DNA from: an uncultured Bacilli bacterium | GTDB lineage: Bacteria > Bacillota_I > Bacilli_A > RF39 > UBA660 | Reading direction: 5' to 3' | Length of the DNA: 64,000 bases | Assembly (NCBI GenBank): GCA_934149105.1 | Contig: CAKPDP010000001.1 | Coordinates: forward strand, 70,438-134,437 | In this document: one piece after another, positions 15,857-55,124 of the stretch | How the letters are laid out: the number at the start of each line of letters is the position of its first letter | How positions within the stretch are numbered: position 1 is the first letter of the stretch | Notes under the pieces: generated by a model | Told to the model about the DNA's origin: nothing | Database searches by the model: none | Seen by the model: only the letters and a program-made list of their open reading frames with translations | Program-made: the position numbers and the translations under genes

Positions 15857-17317
15857 ATGTTTAAGAAGATATTAAGGGGAGTATTATTATTTATAGGGAT
15901 GATGCTTGTTAATAGGCCTATGGCAATGGCTAGTGATATTTGTACTGTTAGTAGTAATAGTGTTACTGTTAAAGGGCAAGATATTGTTCCTATTACAGTA
16001 TTAGTTAGTAATAGTGATAATAAGAACTTTAATAAGGGCCAAATAGAGATTAATTATGATAGTAATATTTGGGAATATGTAGATGTTAAAGATATCTATG
16101 AAGGATTTGAATATAATGTTAATAATAGTGAGGGGAAGTTTATATTATCTTTAACTAGTGATACTAATACTATTAATAGTGATGCAACAATGGTTACAAT
16201 AAATTTTAAAGTTAAAGAAGGAGTTGCAAATCAAAGGACTAATATTGCTCTTAGTGATCAATCTTTTATGGCTTCTAATGATGGTAATTATAATTGTGGT
16301 TCTAAGACACTTACTTATAATATTTATGATGATGTTAAAGATGCTACTTTGGCTTATTTAACTGTTAATGGGGATTTGAAACCAGAGTATAATGCGGGAA
16401 TAAAAGATTATACTTTGGCAGTGGATAATGATGTAAAAAGTTTATATGTTAGTGCTAAGTGTAAAGTAGCAGGCTGTAATATTTCTGGAGTAGGAGATCA
16501 TGCATTAAAGGTTGGTAAGAATGAAATAGAAGTTACAGTTTTATCTTCTGATGGTAGTAGTAAGAATATTTATAAGATTGTTGTTACAAGAAAAAAAGGG
16601 AATACTACTAGTAATAATAATGAAAATAAGAATTATGTTAAAGATAGTAATGCTAATTTAAAGAGTCTTACTATTAGTAAGGGAGAATTAGATCCGGGAT
16701 TTTCTAAAGATATTACTACATATACGGTTAATGTAGATAAAGATTGTGAAAGTATCAGGATTAGTGCTATATGTTCGGGTATAGAGTGTACAGTTAGTAA
16801 TACGGGAGTTAAATACTTAAAATACGGAGAGAATAAATATGAAATTAAGGTAACAGCAGAAGATGGGACAGTAAAGATTTATACTATTACTGTTAATAAG
16901 GCTTATGATTTAAGATTATCTAGTATTGTTATTAATAAATATTCTTTGAATCCTAGTTTTGATAAAGATATTTATGATTATGAAATAGATGTAGATAGTG
17001 ATGTAAATAGTTTAGATATTAGAACAGAGTCGGATAATACGGATAGTATTATTACAATTATGGGAAACAAGAATTTTAAGGTTGGCAAAAATATTGTTAC
17101 TATTAAAGTTGAAAATAAGGATAGTAAGGAGACTAATGTTTATACTATTATTGTTAATAAAAAGAGTAATGATGATAAGATTAAAGATGTAGATAAAGAA
17201 GAAGTTAAAATTAGAGATAATAGTTATGTTTTAACTTTGGGAATTGTTATAGGAAGTTTAATCTTAATAGGAGTAATAATATTTGTTTGGTATTTATTAA
17301 GAAAGAGAAAAAAATAG
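15857..17317 (+). CDS. surface protein: signal peptide, cohesin-like domain, three cadherin-like beta-sandwich repeats, C-terminal TM anchor
   Basis: N-terminal hydrophobic signal. Repeats of the type LKSLTISKGELDPGFSKDITTYTVNV...YKIVVTRK. C-terminal LGIVIGSLILIGVIIFVWYLLRKRKK. Confidence 0.6.
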   Translation: MFKKILRGVLLFIGMMLVNRPMAMASDICTVSSNSVTVKGQDIVPITVLVSNSDNKNFNKGQIEINYDSNIWEYVDVKDIYEGFEYNVNNSEGKFILSLTSDTNTINSDATMVTINFKVKEGVANQRTNIALSDQSFMASNDGNYNCGSKTLTYNIYDDVKDATLAYLTVNGDLKPEYNAGIKDYTLAVDNDVKSLYVSAKCKVAGCNISGVGDHALKVGKNEIEVTVLSSDGSSKNIYKIVVTRKKGNTTSNNNENKNYVKDSNANLKSLTISKGELDPGFSKDITTYTVNVDKDCESIRISAICSGIECTVSNTGVKYLKYGENKYEIKVTAEDGTVKIYTITVNKAYDLRLSSIVINKYSLNPSFDKDIYDYEIDVDSDVNSLDIRTESDNTDSIITIMGNKNFKVGKNIVTIKVENKDSKETNVYTIIVNKKSNDDKIKDVDKEEVKIRDNSYVLTLGIVIGSLILIGVIIFVWYLLRKRKK

Positions 17318-35458: not shown

Positions 35459-35486
35459 ACACTTTTGGATATTTTTTCATACAATA
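35459..35486 (+). promoter_or_regulatory. mother-cell sigma (sigmaK/sigmaE)-like promoter upstream of the tiny peptide pair
   Basis: AC (35459-35460), 17-nt spacer, CATACAATA (35478-35486). This fits the B. subtilis sigmaK consensus AC-N16/17-CATAnnnTA and the sigmaE -10 CATACAnT. Confidence 0.3.
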
Positions 35487-35519: not shown

Positions 35520-35600
35520 ATGGGAAATTGTGGTTCTAGTGCTGCTATCGTTTTAGTGTTGTTCATTTTGTTAATTATTATACTTGGAGCTTGGATTTAA
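35520..35600 (+). CDS. tiny TM peptide, YjcZ-like (26 aa), not in ORF track
   Basis: AGGAGG lies 11 nt upstream. Translation MGNCGSSAAIVLVLFILLIIILGAWI has the IVLVLFILLII core of the tiny_TM_bacill/YjcZ sporulation peptide family. Confidence 0.6.
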   Translation: MGNCGSSAAIVLVLFILLIIILGAWI

Positions 35601-35612
35601 AGGAGGTGTTTT

Positions 35613-35735
35613 ATGACAACTAATAATTCTTGTAATAATACATGCAGTTGTGGAACAACTGGTGGTAGGGGCTTTTTGATTATAGTTGTTTTATATATAT
35701 TATTAGCAATTATATTGGGCTCTTATTTCTTTTAA
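35613..35735 (+). CDS. tiny TM peptide, YjcZ-like (40 aa), not in ORF track
   Basis: AGGAGGTG lies 4 nt upstream. Translation MTTNNSCNNTCSCGTTGGRGFLIIVVLYILLAIILGSYFF is a tandem paralog of the preceding peptide. Confidence 0.6.
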   Translation: MTTNNSCNNTCSCGTTGGRGFLIIVVLYILLAIILGSYFF

Positions 35736-41419: not shown

Positions 41420-42511
41420 ATGAAAAGGATTTTAATATTAGGAATTTGTATGTTAGTACTTTTACCACTTACAGTAAATGCAACAGGTGGTGGTTTAAGA
41501 AAAAGTTCTATAAAAACTTGTCCAAATGGTGTCACATATGGAATGCACAGTGATGGTCATGGCGGAACTCATTGGCATGTGGCAGTGACAAATGGAAATA
41601 ATTATTATGCTGAAGGAGAAGCAATTTATAGTGATCCATGTCCTGGCTATAACAAAAATGAGGGGACTGCTGGAGTAACGGATGGTAGCAACAACTCTTC
41701 ATCGAACAGTTCCGGAAATGGTGGGACAAGTAGCAATTATGGTAATAATTATTCAAACAATAATACACAAAATAACATCCAAAAAGAAGTAGTTATAGAA
41801 AAAAGCAAAGATAATTCTATAAAAGAAGTATCTATTGATGATGAACAAATAACTGTTTCTGATAATATGAATTTTAAAACAGAAAAAAAACATGTTGATA
41901 TTAAGATAGAAGCAAATGATTCAAAAGCGAAAGTTGAATTTGAAAATAAAGAATTATCACTGGGTGAAAATACAATTAATATAGTTGTTACTGCCGAAAA
42001 TGGAGACAAAAAGAATTATACTTTAACAATTAATAAAACTAAAGGCAAGGGAATAGCTACAATTAAAAAATTTGTATTAGGATCTGGTGAAGTTGAATTT
42101 GAAAACAATAAAGCTACCATAACTAAATTAAAGAATGAAACATCCCTAGACTATTCATACGAGTTAAGTGATGCAAAGGCAAAACTAAAAATATATTTAA
42201 ACGGAAAAGAGATTACAAAACTAGAATCATTGAAAGAAAATGACAAGATAAAATTAATAGTTTTAGATGAAAATGATAATGAAAATATATATGAAATAAT
42301 TATTACTGATTATCCTGCTATTGTTTCTATTATAATAGATATGTTAGCGACCATAATAACAGCAGGCATCTTTTTATCACCGATAGTTATTATATTGATT
42401 ATTAAGAATAAAAAGAAGAATAAACGAAGTAATAATGTACAACATGCACAATTAATTGATGATACAGTAAAAAAAGAAAATCAGAATAATAAAAACTATG
42501 AAACAAGATAG
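41420..42511 (+). CDS. secreted membrane-anchored protein with His-rich N-terminal module, N/S-rich linker and cadherin-like beta-sandwich domain(s)
   Basis: Signal peptide MKRILILGICMLVLLPLTVNA, GMHSDGHGGTHWHVA module, TINIVVTAENGDKKNYTLTINK repeat signature, C-terminal TM plus KNKKKNKR. Confidence 0.6.
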   Translation: MKRILILGICMLVLLPLTVNATGGGLRKSSIKTCPNGVTYGMHSDGHGGTHWHVAVTNGNNYYAEGEAIYSDPCPGYNKNEGTAGVTDGSNNSSSNSSGNGGTSSNYGNNYSNNNTQNNIQKEVVIEKSKDNSIKEVSIDDEQITVSDNMNFKTEKKHVDIKIEANDSKAKVEFENKELSLGENTINIVVTAENGDKKNYTLTINKTKGKGIATIKKFVLGSGEVEFENNKATITKLKNETSLDYSYELSDAKAKLKIYLNGKEITKLESLKENDKIKLIVLDENDNENIYEIIITDYPAIVSIIIDMLATIITAGIFLSPIVIILIIKNKKKNKRSNNVQHAQLIDDTVKKENQNNKNYETR

Positions 42512-46931: not shown

Positions 46932-47092
46932 CATAGTACTATATGTACTAAATATATCGCATAGTACTATATGTACTAAATATATCGCATAGTACTATAT
47001 GTACTAAATATATCGCATAGTACTATATGTACTAAATATATCGCATAGTACTATATATACTAAATATATCGCATAGTACTATATATACTAAA
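46932..47092. repeat. 28-bp direct tandem repeat, 5 full units plus a 21-nt partial unit
   Basis: The unit CATAGTACTATATGTACTAAATATATCG repeats head-to-tail at 46932, 46960, 46988, 47016, 47044 and 47072. The last two units carry a G-to-A variant (TATATATAC). Each unit contains AGTAC-TATAT-GTACT dyad symmetry. Confidence 0.95.
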
Positions 47093-47307: not shown

Positions 47308-47590
47308 ATGGAAGAAAATAACAATAATATTGTAATTTATCAAACTGATGATGGAACGACAAAAATAGATGTAAAACTTGAAGATTAAACAGTATGGTTA
47401 TCACAGCAACAGATGGCTGACTTATATGATACAACTAAACAAAATATAAGTTTGCATATTAAAAATATCTTTGATGAAGAAGAATTAGACATAAATTTAA
47501 TCAAAAAGAAGGAAATCGAAAAGTTGAAAGAAAAGTTAAATATTACAATTTAGATATGATTATATCTTGGATTTATGCCTGCTTTTTAGA
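47308..47590 (+). pseudogene. RhuM-family protein pseudogene (N-terminal fragment)
   Basis: MEENNNNIVIYQTDDGTTKIDVKLED-stop-TVWLSQQQMADLYDTTKQNISLHIKNIFDEEEL matches the RhuM N-terminus with an in-frame TAA. A frameshifted continuation reads NQKEGNRKVERKVKYYNLDMIIS and then truncates. Confidence 0.7.
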
Positions 47591-47871: not shown

Positions 47872-48654
47872 ATGATGAATGATTGTGAAAAACAAAGAAT
47901 ATTAGATATGATTAATAAAAATAAGAATTGTTGCAGACCATGTTTTGGTCCAACAGGCCCAACAGGGCCAGCAGGTCCAGCAGGGGGGCCAACAGGTCCA
48001 CAAGGAATACAAGGTCCAACAGGTCCACAAGGAATACAGGGTCCAACTGGCCCGGCAGGTCCACAAGGAATACAAGGTCCAACAGGTCCAGCAGGTCCAG
48101 CAGGCTCACAAGGAATACAGGGTCCAACAGGACCAACAGGTCCACAAGGAATACAAGGACTTCAGGGGACTCAGGGTCTTCAAGGAGCACAAGGTCCAAC
48201 AGGACCAACAGGTCCGGCGGGAGCAACGGTTACACCAACTAATACTTATGGAAGAAAATATGATACTACAGAAGATACAATTACTTTAACGCAAAATGTT
48301 GCAACAGATGTGCCACTTGGAAGTAATGGACCAGCAAATGGAATAACTTTAGATACACAAAATAAATTAACGATACCTGAAAATGGTGTTTATCAAGTAG
48401 ACTATTATTTTTATGGTAGTCCAAATACTAATACAGATCTTACAGTAAGACTTAATCAAAATACAACACCTATTAGTGATACATCAATTACTAAAAGTTT
48501 AACAGCAAATGTAGATACAGAATTTTTTGGAAGTACTATAAATTCATTTAATGCAAATGATGAAATAGGTTTATCAATGGAATCGACAGAAGCAGTAACT
48601 ATATCTCCAGGTCCTGATACTAGTGCTTATATTGATATTATAAAAATAGCATAA
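47872..48654 (+). CDS. collagen-like triple-helix repeat protein with Cys-rich N-terminal leader and BclA/C1q-like C-terminal head (paralog 1)
   Basis: N-terminus [24 protein letters not shown]. There are 31 Gly-X-Y triplets (47947-48225; GPT/GPQ/GIQ) with one extra Gly. The globular C-terminus contains [13 protein letters not shown]. No signal peptide. Confidence 0.85.
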
Positions 48655-48655
48655 G

Positions 48656-48679
48656 AAAAGCCCTTATAAGGGTTTTTTC
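48656..48679 (+). terminator. rho-independent terminator after collagen-like gene 1
   Basis: aaaagccc-ttataa-gggtttttt hairpin plus T-run. Confidence 0.7.
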
Positions 48680-49026
48680 ATAGTGTGTTGTGTATGGTAT
48701 ATATTTAAAAAATTCAATATACATATACATATCAACAAAGTATTAGGAAAGTACAAGAAATTCATCATGAGGTGTGAGCTTCAGGAAAAGTTGAATAAAA
48801 TCGTGATTTGATAAGCAAAATTTTAATATAGGGTACTATACAATGATGTGAACTCTATTTTGGAGACATTGTAAAAAGAACTAACTTACAAATTAAACTA
48901 CTGTATACAGAATGGTACTTATGGTGAGTGAGAGGTAGTTGTATTTATTACTTTAGTAAAAAAGTTCTTTCTACTCGATTGCAAAAAATAATGTTTTTCA
49001 TAAAATATATTAGAGGAGTGAAAAGA

Positions 49027-49788
49027 ATGAATGATTGTGAAAAACAAAGAATATTAGATATGATTAATAGAAATAAGAAATGTTGTAAACCATGTTTTGG
49101 TCCAACAGGACCTACTGGTCCAACAGGTAAACAAGGAGAAATAGGCCCAACAGGTCCAATAGGATTATCAGAAACTATAGAAGTAGGAGAAACATTAACT
49201 GGGGAGCCAGGAAGTAAAGCAAGTGTTGTAGATAGGGGAGGGCCTAATCACATTTTAGATTTTACAATACCAAGTGGTTTTTCAGGATTAAGTAAAATAC
49301 AAAATGCATATATAATAAAATATAATGAAGGAACAGTTGCAACTGGTATAAAAATAGAACCAGATAAAAGAATTCCGTTAGATAGAATTGAACTAGATGT
49401 TGATAATTTAGTTAATTTAAATAGTGAAGATAATTTAATTAAATTTAATAAGCTTGGATATTATAAAATTACTATTATGATAAATGCGTCTATAAAAACA
49501 ACTCCCAATAATTTTAATCCTGATACAGATTTTGTATCATATGGATTTAGACAAACTAATACAGATAATATTTATGTTGGAGCTAGTAAATGGATTTATA
49601 ATAATGAATATTCTAATGTAATATCTCAAGGAATAGTCGCAGTAGATAATACGGATAATGATTATGAAATAGTTAATATTGGTTCAAAAGAAATATATTT
49701 ATTATCACCAGATTTAAATAATATAAAATCAAATTCGTATTTTACAAATACACTTGTAAATATAGTGATTGAATATTTAGGAAAATAG
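49027..49788 (+). CDS. collagen-like protein paralog 2 (short Gly-X-Y tract, different globular C-terminal domain)
   Basis: The ATG at 49027 sits behind GAGGAG (the track start 48928 is upstream read-through). Same leader, [24 protein letters not shown]. Seven triplets, then the module LSETIEVGETLTGEPGSKASVVDRGGPNHILDFTIPSG and an N-rich domain. Confidence 0.8.
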   Translation: MNDCEKQRILDMINRNKKCCKPCFGPTGPTGPTGKQGEIGPTGPIGLSETIEVGETLTGEPGSKASVVDRGGPNHILDFTIPSGFSGLSKIQNAYIIKYNEGTVATGIKIEPDKRIPLDRIELDVDNLVNLNSEDNLIKFNKLGYYKITIMINASIKTTPNNFNPDTDFVSYGFRQTNTDNIYVGASKWIYNNEYSNVISQGIVAVDNTDNDYEIVNIGSKEIYLLSPDLNNIKSNSYFTNTLVNIVIEYLGK

Positions 49789-49796
49789 GTAAATAT

Positions 49797-50894
49797 ATGA
49801 AAAAATATAAGGTTTGTGTATATGCGATATGTAAAAATGAAGAAAAATTTGTTAATAGATGGTTTGATTCTATGAAAGAAGCTGATGAGATATATGTACT
49901 TGATACAGGGTCTACTGATAATTCTATAAATTTATTAGTAGAAAAAGGAGTACATGTAAAACAAAAGAAAATAAATCCCTGGAGGTTTGATGTGGCCAGA
50001 AATATTTCTTTGGATATGGTTCCCAAAAATGCTGATATATGTGTTTGTACTGATTTAGATGAAATATTAAAAGAAGGATGGAGAGAAAAATTAGAAAGTG
50101 TTTGGAACAAAGATACAAATAGATGCAGATATACATATAATTGGAGTTTAGATGATAATGATAATCCTAAAGTATCATTTATATATGAAAAAATTCATAG
50201 TAGAAATAATTATAAATGGATTTATCCAGTTCATGAAGTGTTAGAGTATACGAAAAAAAATGAAAATGTTGTAATTAATGAAGATATTATTTTAAATCAT
50301 TATCCTGATTGTACTAAATCAAGAAATTCATATCTTCCACTTTTAGAGTTATCAGTAAAAGAAAATCCAGAAAATGATAGAAATATGCATTATTTAGGTA
50401 GAGAATATATGTATTATGGAAAATGGAATGAAGCAATAGATACGCTTATTAAACATTTAAATTTGAAAAGTGCAACATGGAAGGATGAAAGATGTGCATC
50501 CATGAGATTTATTGCTAGATGTTATGAGAATTTAAATAGATATGATGAAGCTAAAAGATGGTTTGAAAAAGCAATAGATGAAGCACCATATTTAAGAGAG
50601 CCATATGTTGAAATGGCACTTCTAGAGTATTCTTTAGGTAATTATGATGAAGTAATAAATAATTGTCAAAAAGCATTAACAATTAGTAGGCAAGAAAAAA
50701 CATATATAAATGAAGTATTTAGCTATGATCATACTATAAATGATTTATTATCAATTTCATATTATTATAAAGGTAAATTATTTTTGGCTTTGGAAAATGT
50801 TAATAAAGCAATTAGTTTATCACCTAATAATGAAAGGTTAATAGAAAATAAAAAAATAATAGAGGATAAAATAAAGAATACTAATTTAGATTAG
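49797..50894 (+). CDS. family 2 glycosyltransferase fused to C-terminal TPR repeats
   Basis: GT-A N-terminus VCVYAICKNEEKFVNRWFDSMKEADEIYVLDTGSTDNS with a DxD-like TDLDE. TPR-like helices in residues ~190-340. Lies 8 nt downstream of collagen-like gene 2. Confidence 0.75.
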   Translation: MKKYKVCVYAICKNEEKFVNRWFDSMKEADEIYVLDTGSTDNSINLLVEKGVHVKQKKINPWRFDVARNISLDMVPKNADICVCTDLDEILKEGWREKLESVWNKDTNRCRYTYNWSLDDNDNPKVSFIYEKIHSRNNYKWIYPVHEVLEYTKKNENVVINEDIILNHYPDCTKSRNSYLPLLELSVKENPENDRNMHYLGREYMYYGKWNEAIDTLIKHLNLKSATWKDERCASMRFIARCYENLNRYDEAKRWFEKAIDEAPYLREPYVEMALLEYSLGNYDEVINNCQKALTISRQEKTYINEVFSYDHTINDLLSISYYYKGKLFLALENVNKAISLSPNNERLIENKKIIEDKIKNTNLD

Positions 50895-50976
50895 ATTTGA
50901 ATTTAGTTCAAATTTAGATATGTTTTTTCGAATAATATCCTTAGAGTAAAAAAATTCTTTATAATAATTGTAAAAA

Positions 50977-51004
50977 GAAGCAAGTTTTATAAAAATTTTG
51001 CTTC
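50977..51004. terminator. hairpin between the convergent glycosyltransferase gene and the minus-strand operon
   Basis: Stem gaagcaa / ttgcttc with an AT-rich interior. A T-run follows on the minus strand (ttttta). Confidence 0.5.
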
Positions 51005-51008
51005 CTTA

Positions 51009-51554
51009 TTAATTATCTTCAAGTATTATTTGACCATCTATAACTGGTATATTTGGGAAACTTGCATCCATTAATGTGAAGTTTCTAACTGGTGCTGTTG
51101 GATTTGTTATTTGCACTGTTTCAGATGCTTCAGTCATAACTATTGATTTAACACTATCGTCAAATGTGTGACCTCCATCACTGGATATTTGCTTATAATA
51201 TATTGCAGTACTTCCAGATTCACTAAAAGGAACATTATTAAATACAGCATTTCCATCGTCGTTAGTTGTTATTTCATTTCCAACTATTGTTCCTGTACTA
51301 TCGGTTCTTATAAATTTTGCTCCAACAATTTGTATTCCAGTATTAGGATCACCTGTATCTGTAACATGAAGTGTTAAAGTTCCTTTGGCACTTATAGTAA
51401 AAGCATATGTGGTAGTTCCATCTATAATGGTTACATTTTTGGGTTCTAGTGTTGAGGCATCATATCCACCTGCAACAGCTTGGGCATTGTATGTCCCAGT
51501 AACAAGTTCAATACTGCCTTTGCCATTTGTTATTGGAATTGTATGTCTTGCCAT
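51009..51554 (-). CDS. small prealbumin/CnaB-like fold protein (181 aa), no signal peptide
   Basis: VGAKFIRTDSTGTIVGNEITTNDDGNAVFNNVPF resembles SpaA/CnaB-type repeat cores. The C-terminal motif FPNIPVIDGQIILE is shared with the upstream 119-aa protein. Overlaps that gene by 25 nt. Confidence 0.6.
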   Translation of the reverse strand: MARHTIPITNGKGSIELVTGTYNAQAVAGGYDASTLEPKNVTIIDGTTTYAFTISAKGTLTLHVTDTGDPNTGIQIVGAKFIRTDSTGTIVGNEITTNDDGNAVFNNVPFSESGSTAIYYKQISSDGGHTFDDSVKSIVMTEASETVQITNPTAPVRNFTLMDASFPNIPVIDGQIILEDN

Positions 51555-51889
51555 AATATCATTTGACCTCCTTCTATTTTTATGTTTGGATAATATTTAT
51601 CCTTTAGTAAAACTGTAACAAGATGTTCTTTTCTTTTATTATTATCAATATTTATGCAATAAACTTTATCTTTTCTTGCAATTAAAGGTATTTTTACAAT
51701 TGATAAATTAGAATATATTACTAATTTATATACCTCATTACTACATATTGGTATTTTTAATTTTCCAAAATTATCTGTTATTCCATCAAAAACAATCTCA
51801 TCACACTTATTTTTAAGTTTTATTTTTAAATTACTTAGACATATGCTGTCGTTACTACAAAGTTTAATATAAATATAATCACTTGTCAT
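51530..51889 (-). CDS. small Cys-containing protein (119 aa) related to the 181-aa protein
   Basis: GAGGTG RBS. GITDNFGKLKIP core, five Cys residues, C-terminal YPNIKIEGGQMILW motif. Confidence 0.6.
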   Translation of the reverse strand: MTSDYIYIKLCSNDSICLSNLKIKLKNKCDEIVFDGITDNFGKLKIPICSNEVYKLVIYSNLSIVKIPLIARKDKVYCINIDNNKRKEHLVTVLLKDKYYPNIKIEGGQMILWQDIQFQ

Positions 51890-51942
51890 AATTCACCTCA
51901 TTACAATATATTTTATGAATCAAGTCTTTTTTTGTAAAGGCA

Positions 51943-53808
51943 TTATGCCTCAACACTCCAAATTATTAGTGTAGAATAATCTTCATCTTCAAGCAAATCT
52001 TTGCTAGGTTTTAGCAGTAATCCTTTATCAAGCGAAAACGTAATATTACTAACAGTTACATTTCCACCATTGTCATTTGATTCATATATTAATTTTTTAT
52101 TTGTTTTTAAAAGTATTTCTTCATTATTGAATTTTTTGAAAAATAATGAATCTATTAATACTTTGCCAGTACTTTCTATCATGGGATTTGTATAAGTTAA
52201 ATATAGTTTCCAGTTAGTACTATTTATTCTACTATCAACTACAGTTACCACTGTTTCATTTTTTTTAGGTAATATAATTGGATTAGTTGAAGATGGTATC
52301 ATACTAAAAGGAATATTTTCTGTTACTTTTAAAAGAGTTAATTCGCCCATGAAAGGGGTTGTTACTTTTCTTTCGTTAAAGTAACTATTTAAACAAGATG
52401 TTATTTTAATTCTTGTATTATCTGAAATGTTGGAATCAATACTGGCTTCAAACAAACCATTTTCATTTGAAACTGTTGTTAAACTTTTATTATCATATTC
52501 TATTTTAATATTTGCATATGGTATAGTGTGACCTGAAATGGTAGATGTAGAATTTGTAATTGGATGAATATTTATCTTGAGCATTCCAATAGTTAATATT
52601 TTTTTATCTTGAAATGAAAAACTATTTATATCTGATATTAAACTTAATTCAGCATCTGTAAAATTATGGGATGTAATTGTAGTACTATCCATATTTAAGA
52701 CACCTGTTATTTTAGCTGGTGTATTTTCTTTATACCAATAGAATGCTGGTGTATCATCAATAGTGCAAGCAGAAGTATAATCAAGAGCATATATCCACAT
52801 ATTAATTCTACTAAAGCTAAATACAAAATCAACAGGATTGTTTGTATAAACTATATTTGCATTTTTGGTATAAATATTTACATATTTTGGATTATCTAGT
52901 ATAAATTTTTGATTAGTTCCTTTAAAATAAATATTATAGTTATCAGATGGTGTTGTCATATAAGTATTTATTATTGATACACTGGCACCTTCTAAAACTT
53001 TAAAATCTCCAAATATATTCCACATAGGAACTCTTTGATGACTTTTTTCTATAAATGTAAAATTAGCCATTTCTTCTATTAAAACATTTCTAGCTCCATG
53101 AGTTGTTGTTATTGCAAAACCGTTTCCTGTTGTTAAAAGAAATTCTGCTCCATGTCCTACTATTAGATCTAACCTATTAGTTCCATTCATAAATTCTTTG
53201 TTGGTCGTAATACTTATTCTGCTATTTGGCATAATTTTAACTAAAGATGGTATAACATCATTAAAAAAGAAAATTGTATTTGTGGTTGAACTACTTGTAA
53301 TTGTTGTGTTTCCACCGATTATAATTATATTGGAATTACAGGCTCTTTGAGCAGAAACATTATTAGTATCTTTCACTTCTAGAACGGAATCTATAATTTT
53401 AGTAGTTCCATAATAATTTTGTGAAAGTTCGATTCCACTAAAATTTATATTATTATATTCTACTACTACATTAGAATAGTTTGGATGAGACGGAACATAA
53501 ATAACTCCATAACCATGTGAAGAAACTATATTCATATTTTTTAATATAATTCTTTTATTAGTTGTACTTGCTTTTATAACTGTTTCTTCTAAACTTAAAT
53601 TATTTGTGTAAGTGTATTTTGTACTATTATATGTTCCATCAATAATAATTTTACTTTTATTACTATTTATAATAAAACCACTTGTTGCGGTAATATCGTT
53701 TCCTAAATAAACATATTCATAACCATTATCTTCGCTCAATACTTGTTTTAATTCATCGCTAGTTGTAACAACAACAGTACTATTATCTATTATTTGAATA
53801 ATTATCAC
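51943..53808 (-). CDS. beta-helix (pectate-lyase-like adhesive) protein with Ig-like middle region and C-terminal WxL-type domain, lacking a signal peptide
   Basis: The N-terminus starts directly with TTSDELKQVLSEDNGYEYVYLGNDITA...IIIDG (beta-helix adhesin-like). The C-terminus has GELTLLKVTENIPFS, VVDSRINSTNWKLYL and a terminal YSTLIIWSVEA (WxL pattern). The GTG start abuts the SD-like GAAGGAAG, so the start is uncertain. Confidence 0.65.
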   Translation of the reverse strand: MIIIQIIDNSTVVVTTSDELKQVLSEDNGYEYVYLGNDITATSGFIINSNKSKIIIDGTYNSTKYTYTNNLSLEETVIKASTTNKRIILKNMNIVSSHGYGVIYVPSHPNYSNVVVEYNNINFSGIELSQNYYGTTKIIDSVLEVKDTNNVSAQRACNSNIIIIGGNTTITSSSTTNTIFFFNDVIPSLVKIMPNSRISITTNKEFMNGTNRLDLIVGHGAEFLLTTGNGFAITTTHGARNVLIEEMANFTFIEKSHQRVPMWNIFGDFKVLEGASVSIINTYMTTPSDNYNIYFKGTNQKFILDNPKYVNIYTKNANIVYTNNPVDFVFSFSRINMWIYALDYTSACTIDDTPAFYWYKENTPAKITGVLNMDSTTITSHNFTDAELSLISDINSFSFQDKKILTIGMLKINIHPITNSTSTISGHTIPYANIKIEYDNKSLTTVSNENGLFEASIDSNISDNTRIKITSCLNSYFNERKVTTPFMGELTLLKVTENIPFSMIPSSTNPIILPKKNETVVTVVDSRINSTNWKLYLTYTNPMIESTGKVLIDSLFFKKFNNEEILLKTNKKLIYESNDNGGNVTVSNITFSLDKGLLLKPSKDLLEDEDYSTLIIWSVEA

Positions 53809-53871
53809 CTTCCTTCACAATAATTTATGTTGAAATTTAAAAGCTAATTAATTAAAAAGAATAGAGTTTTT

Positions 53872-55041
53872 TTAATGAATTTTAGTGACGCTCAACATTG
53901 CATTAGTACTGCCATTAAATTTCATGTTAACGGTTTTAGATGGTTTGACATTTAATGTTATAAGGTCATTTGTTTGTAATGATACAATGGTTGTTCCACT
54001 TATACTATTAATCATTTGAGCAATAAATTCACTTGTTGCACTTGTAGCTGGTTGTAATATATTATTTGCTCTAACTGACATTGTTATAGAACATTCTTCG
54101 TTTGTTGCTCCACATAGTAAATATGATATAAGGTATACTCCATTTTCTTTTATTTTAATAGAATTATCATCTGGATATTCTGTTAAAAATGCTGTTCCTT
54201 TTTCGGGTAGTGGAATTATAGTATCAGTTCCTTGCGGTAAATTAATTTGTGTATCATTCATTGAATATCTAATTCCATAAGAGGACACAAATTCTGTCCC
54301 TGGTGGGCCTGCTGGACCTTGTGGTCCTCTTTCTCCTATATCTCCTTTATCACCTTTTGGAATTGAAAATGCTAAATGATGTACCCAATTTTCAAAGGTA
54401 TCCATAACAGTTGCGGGTTCTCCAGGCTCTAAAGTTTCAGTTTCATCTATAGCAATATGTTCTGTTCTTCCTATTTCACCTGGTAATCCTCTTGGTCCCA
54501 TCTCTCCTTTATCACCTTTTTCGCCCTTTGGTATTTTAAAGTCTAAAACTACATCTACTGGTGTTCCAACATTTATAACTTCAGCTTCTTCAGTAGACTC
54601 TATTGTTTCTATATTTCCAATTTGAATAGTAGATGGTCCTTGGTCACCTCTTTCACCTTTAATTCCTTGGGGACCAACGTTTCCTTTATCACCTTTTGGT
54701 CCTGGAATTCCTTGAGGACCAATTTTCCCCTCTATTCCTTGCTTACCTCTTGGTATTTTAAAATTTAAAATAACATCTTTATTTGTTCCAACATTTTCTA
54801 CTTTAGCTTCTTCAAAAGATTCTACTGTTTCTGTAACTCCAATATCGATATTAGTTGGTCCTGGGATTCCTCTCTCTCCTTTTTCCCCTTGATCGCCTTT
54901 TTCACCTTTAATTCCTTGAGGTCCAGTATCTCCTTTATCACCTTTCGGTCCAGTTGGTCCTTGTACATAACAATATTTATATTTTTTTCTTTCTTCTTCA
55001 ATTCTTTTTTTTATTCGCTCATAATCATTGCAATTATTCAT
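53872..55041 (-). CDS. mosaic collagen-like protein (paralog 3): four Gly-X-Y tracts alternating with three ~40-aa beta modules, BclA/C1q-like C-terminal head
   Basis: AGGAGG RBS. Gly-X-Y tracts of about 12, 13, 6 and 7 triplets (charged GDK/GEK/GER type). Modules TNIDIGVTETVESFEEAKVENVGTNKDVILNFKIPRG, STIQIGNIETIESTEEAEVINVGTPVDVVLDFKIPKG and HIAIDETETLEPGEPATVMDTFENWVHHLAFSIPKG. The head contains IKENGVYLISYLL. Confidence 0.85.
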   Translation of the reverse strand: MNNCNDYERIKKRIEEERKKYKYCYVQGPTGPKGDKGDTGPQGIKGEKGDQGEKGERGIPGPTNIDIGVTETVESFEEAKVENVGTNKDVILNFKIPRGKQGIEGKIGPQGIPGPKGDKGNVGPQGIKGERGDQGPSTIQIGNIETIESTEEAEVINVGTPVDVVLDFKIPKGEKGDKGEMGPRGLPGEIGRTEHIAIDETETLEPGEPATVMDTFENWVHHLAFSIPKGDKGDIGERGPQGPAGPPGTEFVSSYGIRYSMNDTQINLPQGTDTIIPLPEKGTAFLTEYPDDNSIKIKENGVYLISYLLCGATNEECSITMSVRANNILQPATSATSEFIAQMINSISGTTIVSLQTNDLITLNVKPSKTVNMKFNGSTNAMLSVTKIH

Positions 55042-55097
55042 TATACATCCTCCTTTAATTTTTTAGAATTAATTCTCATATTTAAATTCTTCTATTT

Positions 55098-55124
55098 TAA
55101 TTTATGAAGATATTTTTAAAATGT
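55098..55124 (-). promoter_or_regulatory. sigmaK-like promoter upstream of the collagen-like gene 3 operon
   Basis: On the minus strand: AC, 16-nt spacer, CATAAATTA. This matches AC-N16/17-CATAnnnTA and lies ~55 nt upstream of the ATG. Confidence 0.3.

Follow-up and report, generated by a model that had tools for sequence, protein, structure and literature searches.

The stretch of DNA analysed in this work (the window) comprises 64,000 nt from an uncultured RF39 (UBA660) bacterium (GCA_934149105.1, contig CAKPDP010000001.1). The feature under study lies at window positions 47872–55124 and contains seven open reading frames (ORFs), which encode three collagen-like proteins (g1, g2, and g3), a glycosyltransferase (GT), and proteins of 621, 119, and 181 aa (p621, p119, and p181). 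A first-pass annotation had described two convergent units, one of them with g2 next to GT, and had joined them into a single 7-kb cluster for a candidate spore-surface glycoprotein system. All seven ORFs were present as earlier described, in two convergent groups. On the plus strand, the ORF list gives g1 (260 aa) at 47872–48654, followed by a terminator-like hairpin with a U-run at 48655–48679 (−11.2 kcal/mol, z = −2.4), so that g1 is predicted to be monocistronic. The g2 gene (49027–49788) starts with an ATG at 49027 behind a GAGGAG ribosome binding site (RBS), and an independent gene call also gave a product of 253 aa; the longest possible ORF begins at 48928. The GT gene (365 aa, 49797–50894) follows 9 nt after g2. 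On the minus strand, g3 (389 aa, 53872–55041) is followed by p621 (51943–53808), p119 (51530–51889), and p181 (51009–51554), and the hairpin search placed a terminator-like hairpin with a U-run at the operon end 3' of p181 (50972–51006). Such hairpin-plus-U terminators, located 3' of g1, GT, and p181, agree with the two units, and the layout fits one predicted monocistronic gene and two predicted operons in convergent orientation. The tRNA and Rfam scans of the window were empty. For comparison, a genome scan with a 10-sequence p621 alignment gave 79 species-representative loci around the closest genomic p621 relatives, from which 1371 ORFs were called and clustered.

Domain composition and export signals

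The g1 protein consists of a Cys-rich N-terminal peptide, GPT/GPQ-rich collagen repeats, and a BclA_C head, with Pfam matches to Collagen (PF01391, 1.4e-13) and to BclA_C (PF18573, 46.9 bits at a cut-off of 38). The mosaic g3 protein starts with a 27-aa peptide, MNNCNDYERIKKRIEEERKKYKYCYVQ, which is kept across loci, and contains four collagen segments (Collagen, 3.2e-18, four stretches) with three fibre-type beta modules of ~45 aa between them, and a BclA_C head (38.8 bits at the same cut-off). The direct sequence match of g3 to the BclA structure 1wck is weak, and the heads of g1 and g3 are homologous (hhalign 100%). The g2 protein begins with the same N-terminal peptide as g1, and continues with a short GPT collagen run (~8 triplets, Pfam Collagen E 0.19), one fibre-type beta module, and a head of 150 aa which belongs to no Pfam family and matched BclA_C heads over 47 columns only (hhalign 69%, E 4e-5). 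The N-termini of the collagen proteins are short Cys-containing peptides, different from the Bacillus exosporium leader.

The GT protein matched Glycos_transf_2 and several TPR families in Pfam, i.e., a GT2 (GT-A) domain joined to TPR. The SgtA enzyme of C. difficile is a GT-A plus TPR protein of 358 aa, which transfers O-GlcNAc onto Thr of GPT repeats (PMC7157674). By description, its architecture equals that of the window GT, which has 365 aa and adjoins a GPT-repeat collagen gene in the same manner as sgtA adjoins bclA3. Moreover, the adjacency of g2 and GT is conserved beyond the window. By analogy, GT is predicted to be an SgtA-like enzyme for the GPT repeats.

The first-pass annotation had labelled p621 as a beta-helix/WxL protein. 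This label holds by homology and structure, not by a direct Pfam match, because the Pfam matches of p621 itself include neither Pectate_lyase nor WxL (PF13731) and are limited to a weak Big_6. Searches of p621, p181, and p119 against the PDB by single sequence or profile gave nothing usable. The AlphaFold2 (AF2) model of p621 built on 50 homologs (predicted local distance difference test, pLDDT, 93.5; predicted template modelling score, pTM, 0.89) has a beta-solenoid at residues ~1–400, an Ig-like domain at ~410–480, and a C-terminal WxL-like sandwich at ~490–621. The top PDB folds were the binding regions of L. reuteri SRRP (5nxk/5ny0; Foldseek E 4e-4 to 8e-4, probability 1.0), which have the pectate-lyase-like adhesin fold and are the best match to the right-handed N-terminal solenoid. 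However, the identity is ~12–14%, and SRRPs use SecA2/Y2 and LPXTG, whereas p621 uses neither. Among 1.8 billion representative proteins, 404 relatives of p621 were found. Many of those of ~620 aa open at the solenoid as p621 does, and others have 670–860 aa. Six of the longer relatives were examined; in these, a signal peptide and a low-complexity linker make up the additional N-terminal part, and Pfam recognised Pectate_lyase_5 in them and in some also Big_6 and WxL. The relative P0199 contains Pectate_lyase_5, Big_6, and WxL (30.7 bits), and p621 aligned with it end to end (BLASTP, 28% identity, E 2e-57) from P0199 residue 39, past the signal peptide, through the WxL domain. Of the two Trp motifs, p621 retains the first as WKL (533), and the second has degenerated to WSV (617). 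Judged by homology and modelled fold, p621 appears to be a "large WxL" adhesin minus the signal peptide. Its annotated GTG start abuts the RBS (53790–53830), and the orthologs begin with MK/MQ-IID. Translation may in fact start two or three codons further in, at a non-canonical ATT or ATA.

The p181 protein had weak Pfam matches to SpaA and CarboxypepD_reg, which recurred in 27 (SpaA, weak) and 18 of its 29 orthologs. The best AF2 model of p181 reached a pLDDT of 82, the other four of five models being poor and the alignment shallow (homologs 73–90% identical), and its top folds were CnaB2 (8bdw, TMt 0.73), B. anthracis TIE (6fwv), and the pilins BcpA, EbpB, and SpaD. In this model p181 would consist of two prealbumin/CnaB-like beta-sandwich domains. 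The earlier domain calls were thus right for the prealbumin fold as well as for collagen/BclA_C and GT2-TPR, the latter two by Pfam. Within the operon, conservation is highest for the p181 protein (mean column identity 75%), which has neither Cys nor a sorting signal. Since no Lys is invariant among the 29 orthologs, the idea of an isopeptide bond was dropped and none is claimed. A sortase pilus was considered, as p181 has the CnaB/prealbumin pilin fold in the model, and was rejected on the missing signal peptide and LPXTG, the missing invariant Lys, and the failure of any sortase family to recur in the loci. The p119 protein is an orphan with five, mostly conserved, cysteines; it occurs in 71 loci, always just before p181, and has no Pfam family and no PDB relative. 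Its kinship with the p181 domains, the Ig or WxL domains of p621, or DUF11-like proteins was rejected by profile comparison. No Pfam match to DUF916/DUF3324 or small WxL was found at E ≤ 1 in p119, p181, or their 28–29 orthologs. The stop of p119 and the start of p181 overlap by 25 nt (51530–51554, p181 in the −1 frame), and an overlap of 16–25 nt is kept in ~70 loci, which suggests translational coupling.

The collagen proteins together with p621, p119, and p181 are referred to here as the six structural proteins, GT not being counted. No signal peptide, transmembrane (TM) helix, lipobox, or LPXTG was found in these six proteins, even in the longest possible ORFs, and their highest 19-residue Kyte-Doolittle mean is 1.41. 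Each ORF in the list opens at the first start codon after the preceding stop, so a hidden N-terminal extension is impossible and the earlier statement that export signals are missing is robust to the choice of start codon. Furthermore, residues 5–14 of p621 are well-modelled strands of the fold (AF2) and not a signal peptide. Two cadherin-like beta-sandwich repeat proteins are encoded elsewhere in the window (41420–42511 and 15857–17317). In the second, a signal peptide is combined with a TM anchor at the C-terminus; Sec-dependent surface proteins therefore exist here, unlike the signal-less cluster.

Related loci and conserved modules

The closest genomic relatives of p621 share 46–91% identity and are found in the 79 loci, nearly all in gut metagenome-assembled genomes labelled as uncultured Bacilli, Tenericutes, or Mollicutes. 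They include Acholeplasma sp. CAG:878, Mycoplasma sp. CAG:611, and Clostridium sp. CAG:417 and CAG:302, and the G+C (GC) content of the loci is 23–32%. The genus CAG-878 and the family CAG-611 are placed in the order RF39 (PMC8035907). Three contigs with the operon at 26–28% GC (L063, L066, and L067) are labelled Paludibacteraceae, Oscillospiraceae, and Sphaerochaetaceae, and are probably mis-binned RF39-like contigs. Only four families recur across the 79 loci, namely p621 (79), p181 (73), p119 (71), and the collagen/BclA_C protein (69). The gene order is almost always collagen-p621-p119-p181 (~70/79 loci), and the flanks vary and contain no phage genes. A sister lineage has a GT of at least 90% identity, again as part of a g1-g2-GT trio, which is located between pheST and polA; there, an sspI gene (PF14098) is convergent to the end of GT and overlaps it (L087–L094, 7085–7285). 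By this comparison of loci, the 7 kb consists of two modules, each conserved on its own and adjoining the other here, and is not the one cluster for which it had been taken.

We also considered that the genes form a domesticated or remnant phage receptor-binding module, in which a collagen tail fibre, a beta-helix tailspike, and two small adaptor or assembly proteins would leave the cell upon lysis or serve a tailocin encoded elsewhere. Phage structural proteins likewise lack signal peptides. The collagen regions and heads match many PHROG tail-fibre families (phrog_5073, 2e-35), but the matches of g1 and g3 rest largely on the collagen repeats, and the PHROG match of p621 is limited to its Ig domain. 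Weak fold matches lead from p621 to the CBA120 tailspike (rank 6) and from p181 to phage baseplate proteins, and a rhuM-like pseudogene and a tandem repeat adjoin g1. The GT family is also found in phages (phrog_13126, 6e-107), which is not informative on this locus. On the other hand, genes for capsid, portal, terminase, tape-measure, integrase, or lysis proteins are missing within 10 kb in the 79 loci, and scans of 2.9 million IMG/VR contigs recovered no relatives of p621 or p181. A tblastn search of INPHARED with p621 gave two unannotated Listeria records only, in which 20% of the p621 length was matched. At 46–91% p621 identity, the operon has been passed down through the whole order, and the window, in which the cluster sits between secA and prfB-ftsEX, is ordinary chromosome without phage features. 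A prophage origin was rejected on the INPHARED, IMG/VR, and 1371-ORF clustering results, so that the refuting finding named in the first-pass annotation, homologs embedded in complete prophages, did not turn up, and a phage-derived module appears highly improbable.

Promoter motifs and a probable link to sporulation

The AC at −35 sets sigma-K apart from sigma-E, the −10 element is common to both, and the C. difficile bclA1-3 genes are under sigma-K control (PMC3789822). The sigma-K-type motif that we searched for was AC-N16/17-CATAnnnTA, and in the test across loci it was sought at most 150 nt upstream of ORFs. The motif search of the window placed a promoter-like site, ACATTTTAAAAATATCTTCATAAATTA, ~55 nt 5' of the g3 start (55098–55124, minus strand), with AC at −35 and CATAnnnTA at −10; this is the match that the first-pass annotation had reported, and it is conserved across species. 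An internal promoter-like site of the AC-N16-CATAnnnTA form, ACAAAAAAAGACTTGATTCATAAAATA, lies 5' of p119 (51909–51935, minus strand). The CATAAAATA box, which g2 has in common with the operon, lies ~20 nt 5' of the g2 start (48999–49007, plus strand); it is kept in the trio copy of the sister lineage, and the full AC-N17 form is found in the sister-lineage locus L090. A CATAAATTA box without AC at −35 is located 8–10 nt before the p621 RBS (53821–53829, minus strand).

Across the related loci, the full motif (N16 or N17) precedes 46 of 96 collagen genes (48%) and 35 of 71 p119 genes (49%), in contrast to 14 of the 994 other ORFs (1.4%). The respective proportions for CATAnnnTA alone are 81, 62, and 9%. 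Fisher's test gave p ~1e-41 for the collagen genes and ~1e-34 for p119, values that overstate independence because the loci are related. The motif also persists in diverged loci whose surrounding intergenic sequence has changed. The base before ATAAAnTA is C in 78% of the distinct collagen sites, in 88% of the p119 sites (29/33), and in 10% of the sites upstream of other ORFs, and this C matters for the CATA −10 element of sigma-E and sigma-K, not for the sigma-A hexamer. Moreover, CATAAAnTA is present upstream of 45% of the p621 orthologs vs. 2% of other ORFs.

The same elements precede genes related to sporulation. The full motif precedes spoVIF (PF14069, 1.3e-22) in the RF39 CAG:878 locus, and the CATAAAnTA box precedes a yutH-like coat kinase gene (TIGR02905, 1.8e-13, below the cut-off) and a DUF421/YetF gene. 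The YjcZ-like sporulation peptides which had been noted elsewhere in the window are two tiny membrane ORFs on the plus strand (35520–35600, 26 aa; 35613–35735, 40 aa). They do lie behind a full motif, ACACTTTTGGATATTTTTTCATACAATA (AC-N17-CATACAATA, 35459–35486, plus strand), whereas their family assignment is marginal, with scores just under the cut-offs (TIGR01732, 21.1 vs. 21.35 bits; YjcZ_2, 19.6 vs. 21). RF39 is predicted from genomes to form spores (PMC10868615), and RF39 variants were among the few taxa passed to chicks along with spore-formers (PMC7028958). With spoVIF, the yutH-like gene, and sspI in related loci, the proposed assignment to a spore-forming lineage is supported.

Proposed assembly at the spore surface

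Surface domains without export signals, the BclA_C heads, an SgtA-like GT, the promoter motif, and the lineage are together best fitted by assembly in the mother cell. We hypothesize that the two modules build the outermost endospore layer of an RF39 gut bacterium, in the form of a hair-like nap, appendages, or both. On the sequence and model evidence, we regard this as reasonably probable, and the spore-surface location first proposed stands as the best explanation of the locus. We infer the timing of expression, location, glycosylation, protein contacts, and ligand as follows. Late in sporulation, the genes would be transcribed in the mother cell from sigma-K/sigma-E-type promoters. As the products have no export signals, they would be retained in the cytoplasm of the mother cell and become assembled on the surface of the forespore. 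The g1, g2, and g3 proteins would form trimers by way of their collagen stalks and BclA_C-type heads, with the short Cys-containing peptides at the N-terminus as tethers to the basal layer, and the GT2-TPR enzyme would O-glycosylate the GPT-repeat Thr residues of g1 and g2 in the manner of SgtA on BclA3. The p621 protein, presumably a cell-wall large WxL adhesin before the loss of its signal peptide, would display its pectate-lyase-like solenoid, which could bind host or dietary glycans. It would be held by the WxL-like C-terminal domain, possibly docked by p119 and p181 as scaffold subunits, a role suggested by analogy with the Ig-fold WxL-interacting protein (DUF916-DUF3324) of vegetative walls (PMC10599100). 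Lysis of the mother cell would then free the decorated spore.

One of the nearest known systems is that of BclA1-3 and SgtA in C. difficile, which also comprises signal-less GPT-rich collagen proteins with a BclA_C/TNF-like head and sigma-K-type elements. Unlike there, the N-terminal domains in the window are unrelated short peptides with Cys, g3 is a mosaic, and the operon adds a beta-solenoid/WxL protein with p119 and p181. The BclA nap of B. anthracis and B. cereus, anchored by ExsFA/BxpB, resembles the window system in the collagen stalk and BclA_C head and, as we presume for the window, in mother-cell assembly. However, the TIGR03720 leader is missing here, no ExsF, ExsY, or CotY is encoded nearby, and the partners are different. 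The F-ENA and S-ENA appendages of Bacillus, Paenibacillus, and Clostridia also combine signal-less beta-sandwich subunits with collagen C1q/BclA proteins (F-Anchor, F-BclA), but neither a DUF4183 or Ena1-type subunit nor an N-terminal hook motif was identified here. Membership in the F-ENA/Ena systems, as defined earlier (PMC12357932), was rejected, as p119, p181, and their orthologs gave no DUF4183 or Ena matches.

A number of results weigh against a spore-surface location. The Bacillus exosporium leader TIGR03720 gave no NCBIfam match at E ≤ 1 in the N-termini of the collagen proteins, and the relatives of p621 that have been characterised all belong to the vegetative cell wall. In the window itself, AC-N16-CATAnnnTA occurs at chance level (5 found vs. 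4.84 expected), although two of the five matches lie just 5' of g3 and p119. A fair sigma-A promoter (TTTACA-N17-TAAAAT) can likewise be read from the p119 site, no sigma-K-like box was found upstream of g1, and the box conserved before p621 is too near the RBS for an ordinary promoter. No sigma-factor genes were detected by the PROSITE sigma-70 pattern in the window or the loci. Furthermore, among the 79 related loci a GT gene near the four-gene operon was found just once, so a joint role of the two modules in a single structure is not required. To our knowledge, RF39 has never been cultured and its spores have never been observed.

Two of these results, the kinship of p621 and the sigma-A reading of the p119 site, would suit a vegetative WxL/Csc-type surface complex, which would leave the cell by a non-Sec route (an unknown exporter, vesicles, or lysis of sister cells) and bind to the wall via the WxL-like domain. 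The p621 protein is a full-length homolog of secreted large WxL adhesins, and the WxL/Csc clusters of Lactobacillales pair such proteins with Ig-fold partners (PMC10599100); p181 is Ig/CnaB-like, and RF39 is predicted to retain a peptidoglycan wall. Nevertheless, the six structural proteins are signal-less across ~79 species while the secreted relatives retain signal peptides. The window cluster also differs from WxL/Csc clusters in having no small WxL protein, DUF916/DUF3324, TM anchor, or exporter gene, and in the WSV form of the second motif. Moreover, p621 is here coupled to a BclA-type collagen gene, a hallmark of the spore surface, and to sporulation-type promoters, in which the C kept at the head of CATA and the −35 AC suit sigma-K over sigma-A and which are shared with spoVIF and the YjcZ-like pair. 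We consider the vegetative complex unlikely.

The separation of the modules leaves room for a division of roles, in which only g1-g2-GT would form a BclA/SgtA-like nap and the operon would specify a separate mother-cell product that is not exposed, such as a coat scaffold or a cytoplasmic or parasporal body, the adjacency being accidental. The modules are indeed apart in other genomes, with the trio between pheST and polA beside sspI and the operon without GT in 78 of the 79 related loci, and g1 lacks the promoter box common to the operon genes. Against such a division, g3 has the same BclA_C head as g1, g2 shares its promoter box with the operon, and the solenoid of p621 is similar to a domain with proven adhesin function (SRRP-BR), which would be odd for a buried protein. 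We find this division quite improbable.

We thus prefer the spore surface as the common site of both modules. On a bolder reading, RF39 and some low-GC relatives would have adapted adhesins of the vegetative wall to the spore surface by deletion of signal peptides, and p621, made in the mother cell, docked by p119 and p181, and joined with a mosaic BclA-type fibre, would represent an undescribed class of exosporium or appendage. We put this bolder reading forward tentatively, as a proposition that falls a little short of even chances. Our literature search found no paper linking WxL with the exosporium. RF39 bacteria are common in human and animal guts and have a reduced genome, and their sporulation is known from gene-presence predictions only. 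If our reading is true, the locus would be a concrete, testable sign that RF39 makes decorated spores and would give a first molecular handle on them, naming the probable outermost antigens and adhesins as candidate determinants of host-to-host transmission. With them as capture antigens, RF39 spores in stool could be enriched or imaged and transmission could be followed. The list of exosporium parts would also come to include CnaB-like proteins and beta-solenoid adhesins of the WxL type, and signal-peptide loss with promoter change would be a simple way for wall proteins to evolve into spore-surface ones.

In a further group of loci, which we call type B (L076, 10001–12444; L078, 6862–11866; L081, 9239–12315; L083–L086), a paralog or distant homolog of p621 is flanked by signal-less DUF11-like proteins of 127–138 aa, which replace p119 and p181. 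Sigma-K-like motifs were found at several type B genes, with the full motif before DUF11-like genes beside p621 paralogs. The type B locus L076 lies 14 kb from a canonical operon (L026) on the same contig, and that of L086 adjoins a SipL-like gene. A group of distant signal-less homologs (the P0180 group, 27–47% mutual identity) is located on contigs of 46–51% GC, where the genes form tandem pairs beside a divergent signal-less DUF11-like protein, one or two of them with the promoter motif. Together with the low-GC type B loci L076, L078, and L081, these sequences suggest that the pairing of a signal-less solenoid with a small Ig-fold protein may be a broader theme in sporulating Firmicutes.

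Two minor features were observed next to g1. A 28-bp tandem repeat of 5.8 copies (99% identity) extends over 46932–47092, between a PfkB-like gene and g1; its unit, CATAGTACTATATGTACTAAATATATCG, includes the palindrome TAGTAC-TATAT-GTACTA, and the repeat could be an iteron or operator array. A remnant of a RhuM-like gene with an in-frame TAA stop lies at ~47309–47560, and hints at past mobile-element activity beside g1; intact relatives of 160 aa are encoded in other loci.

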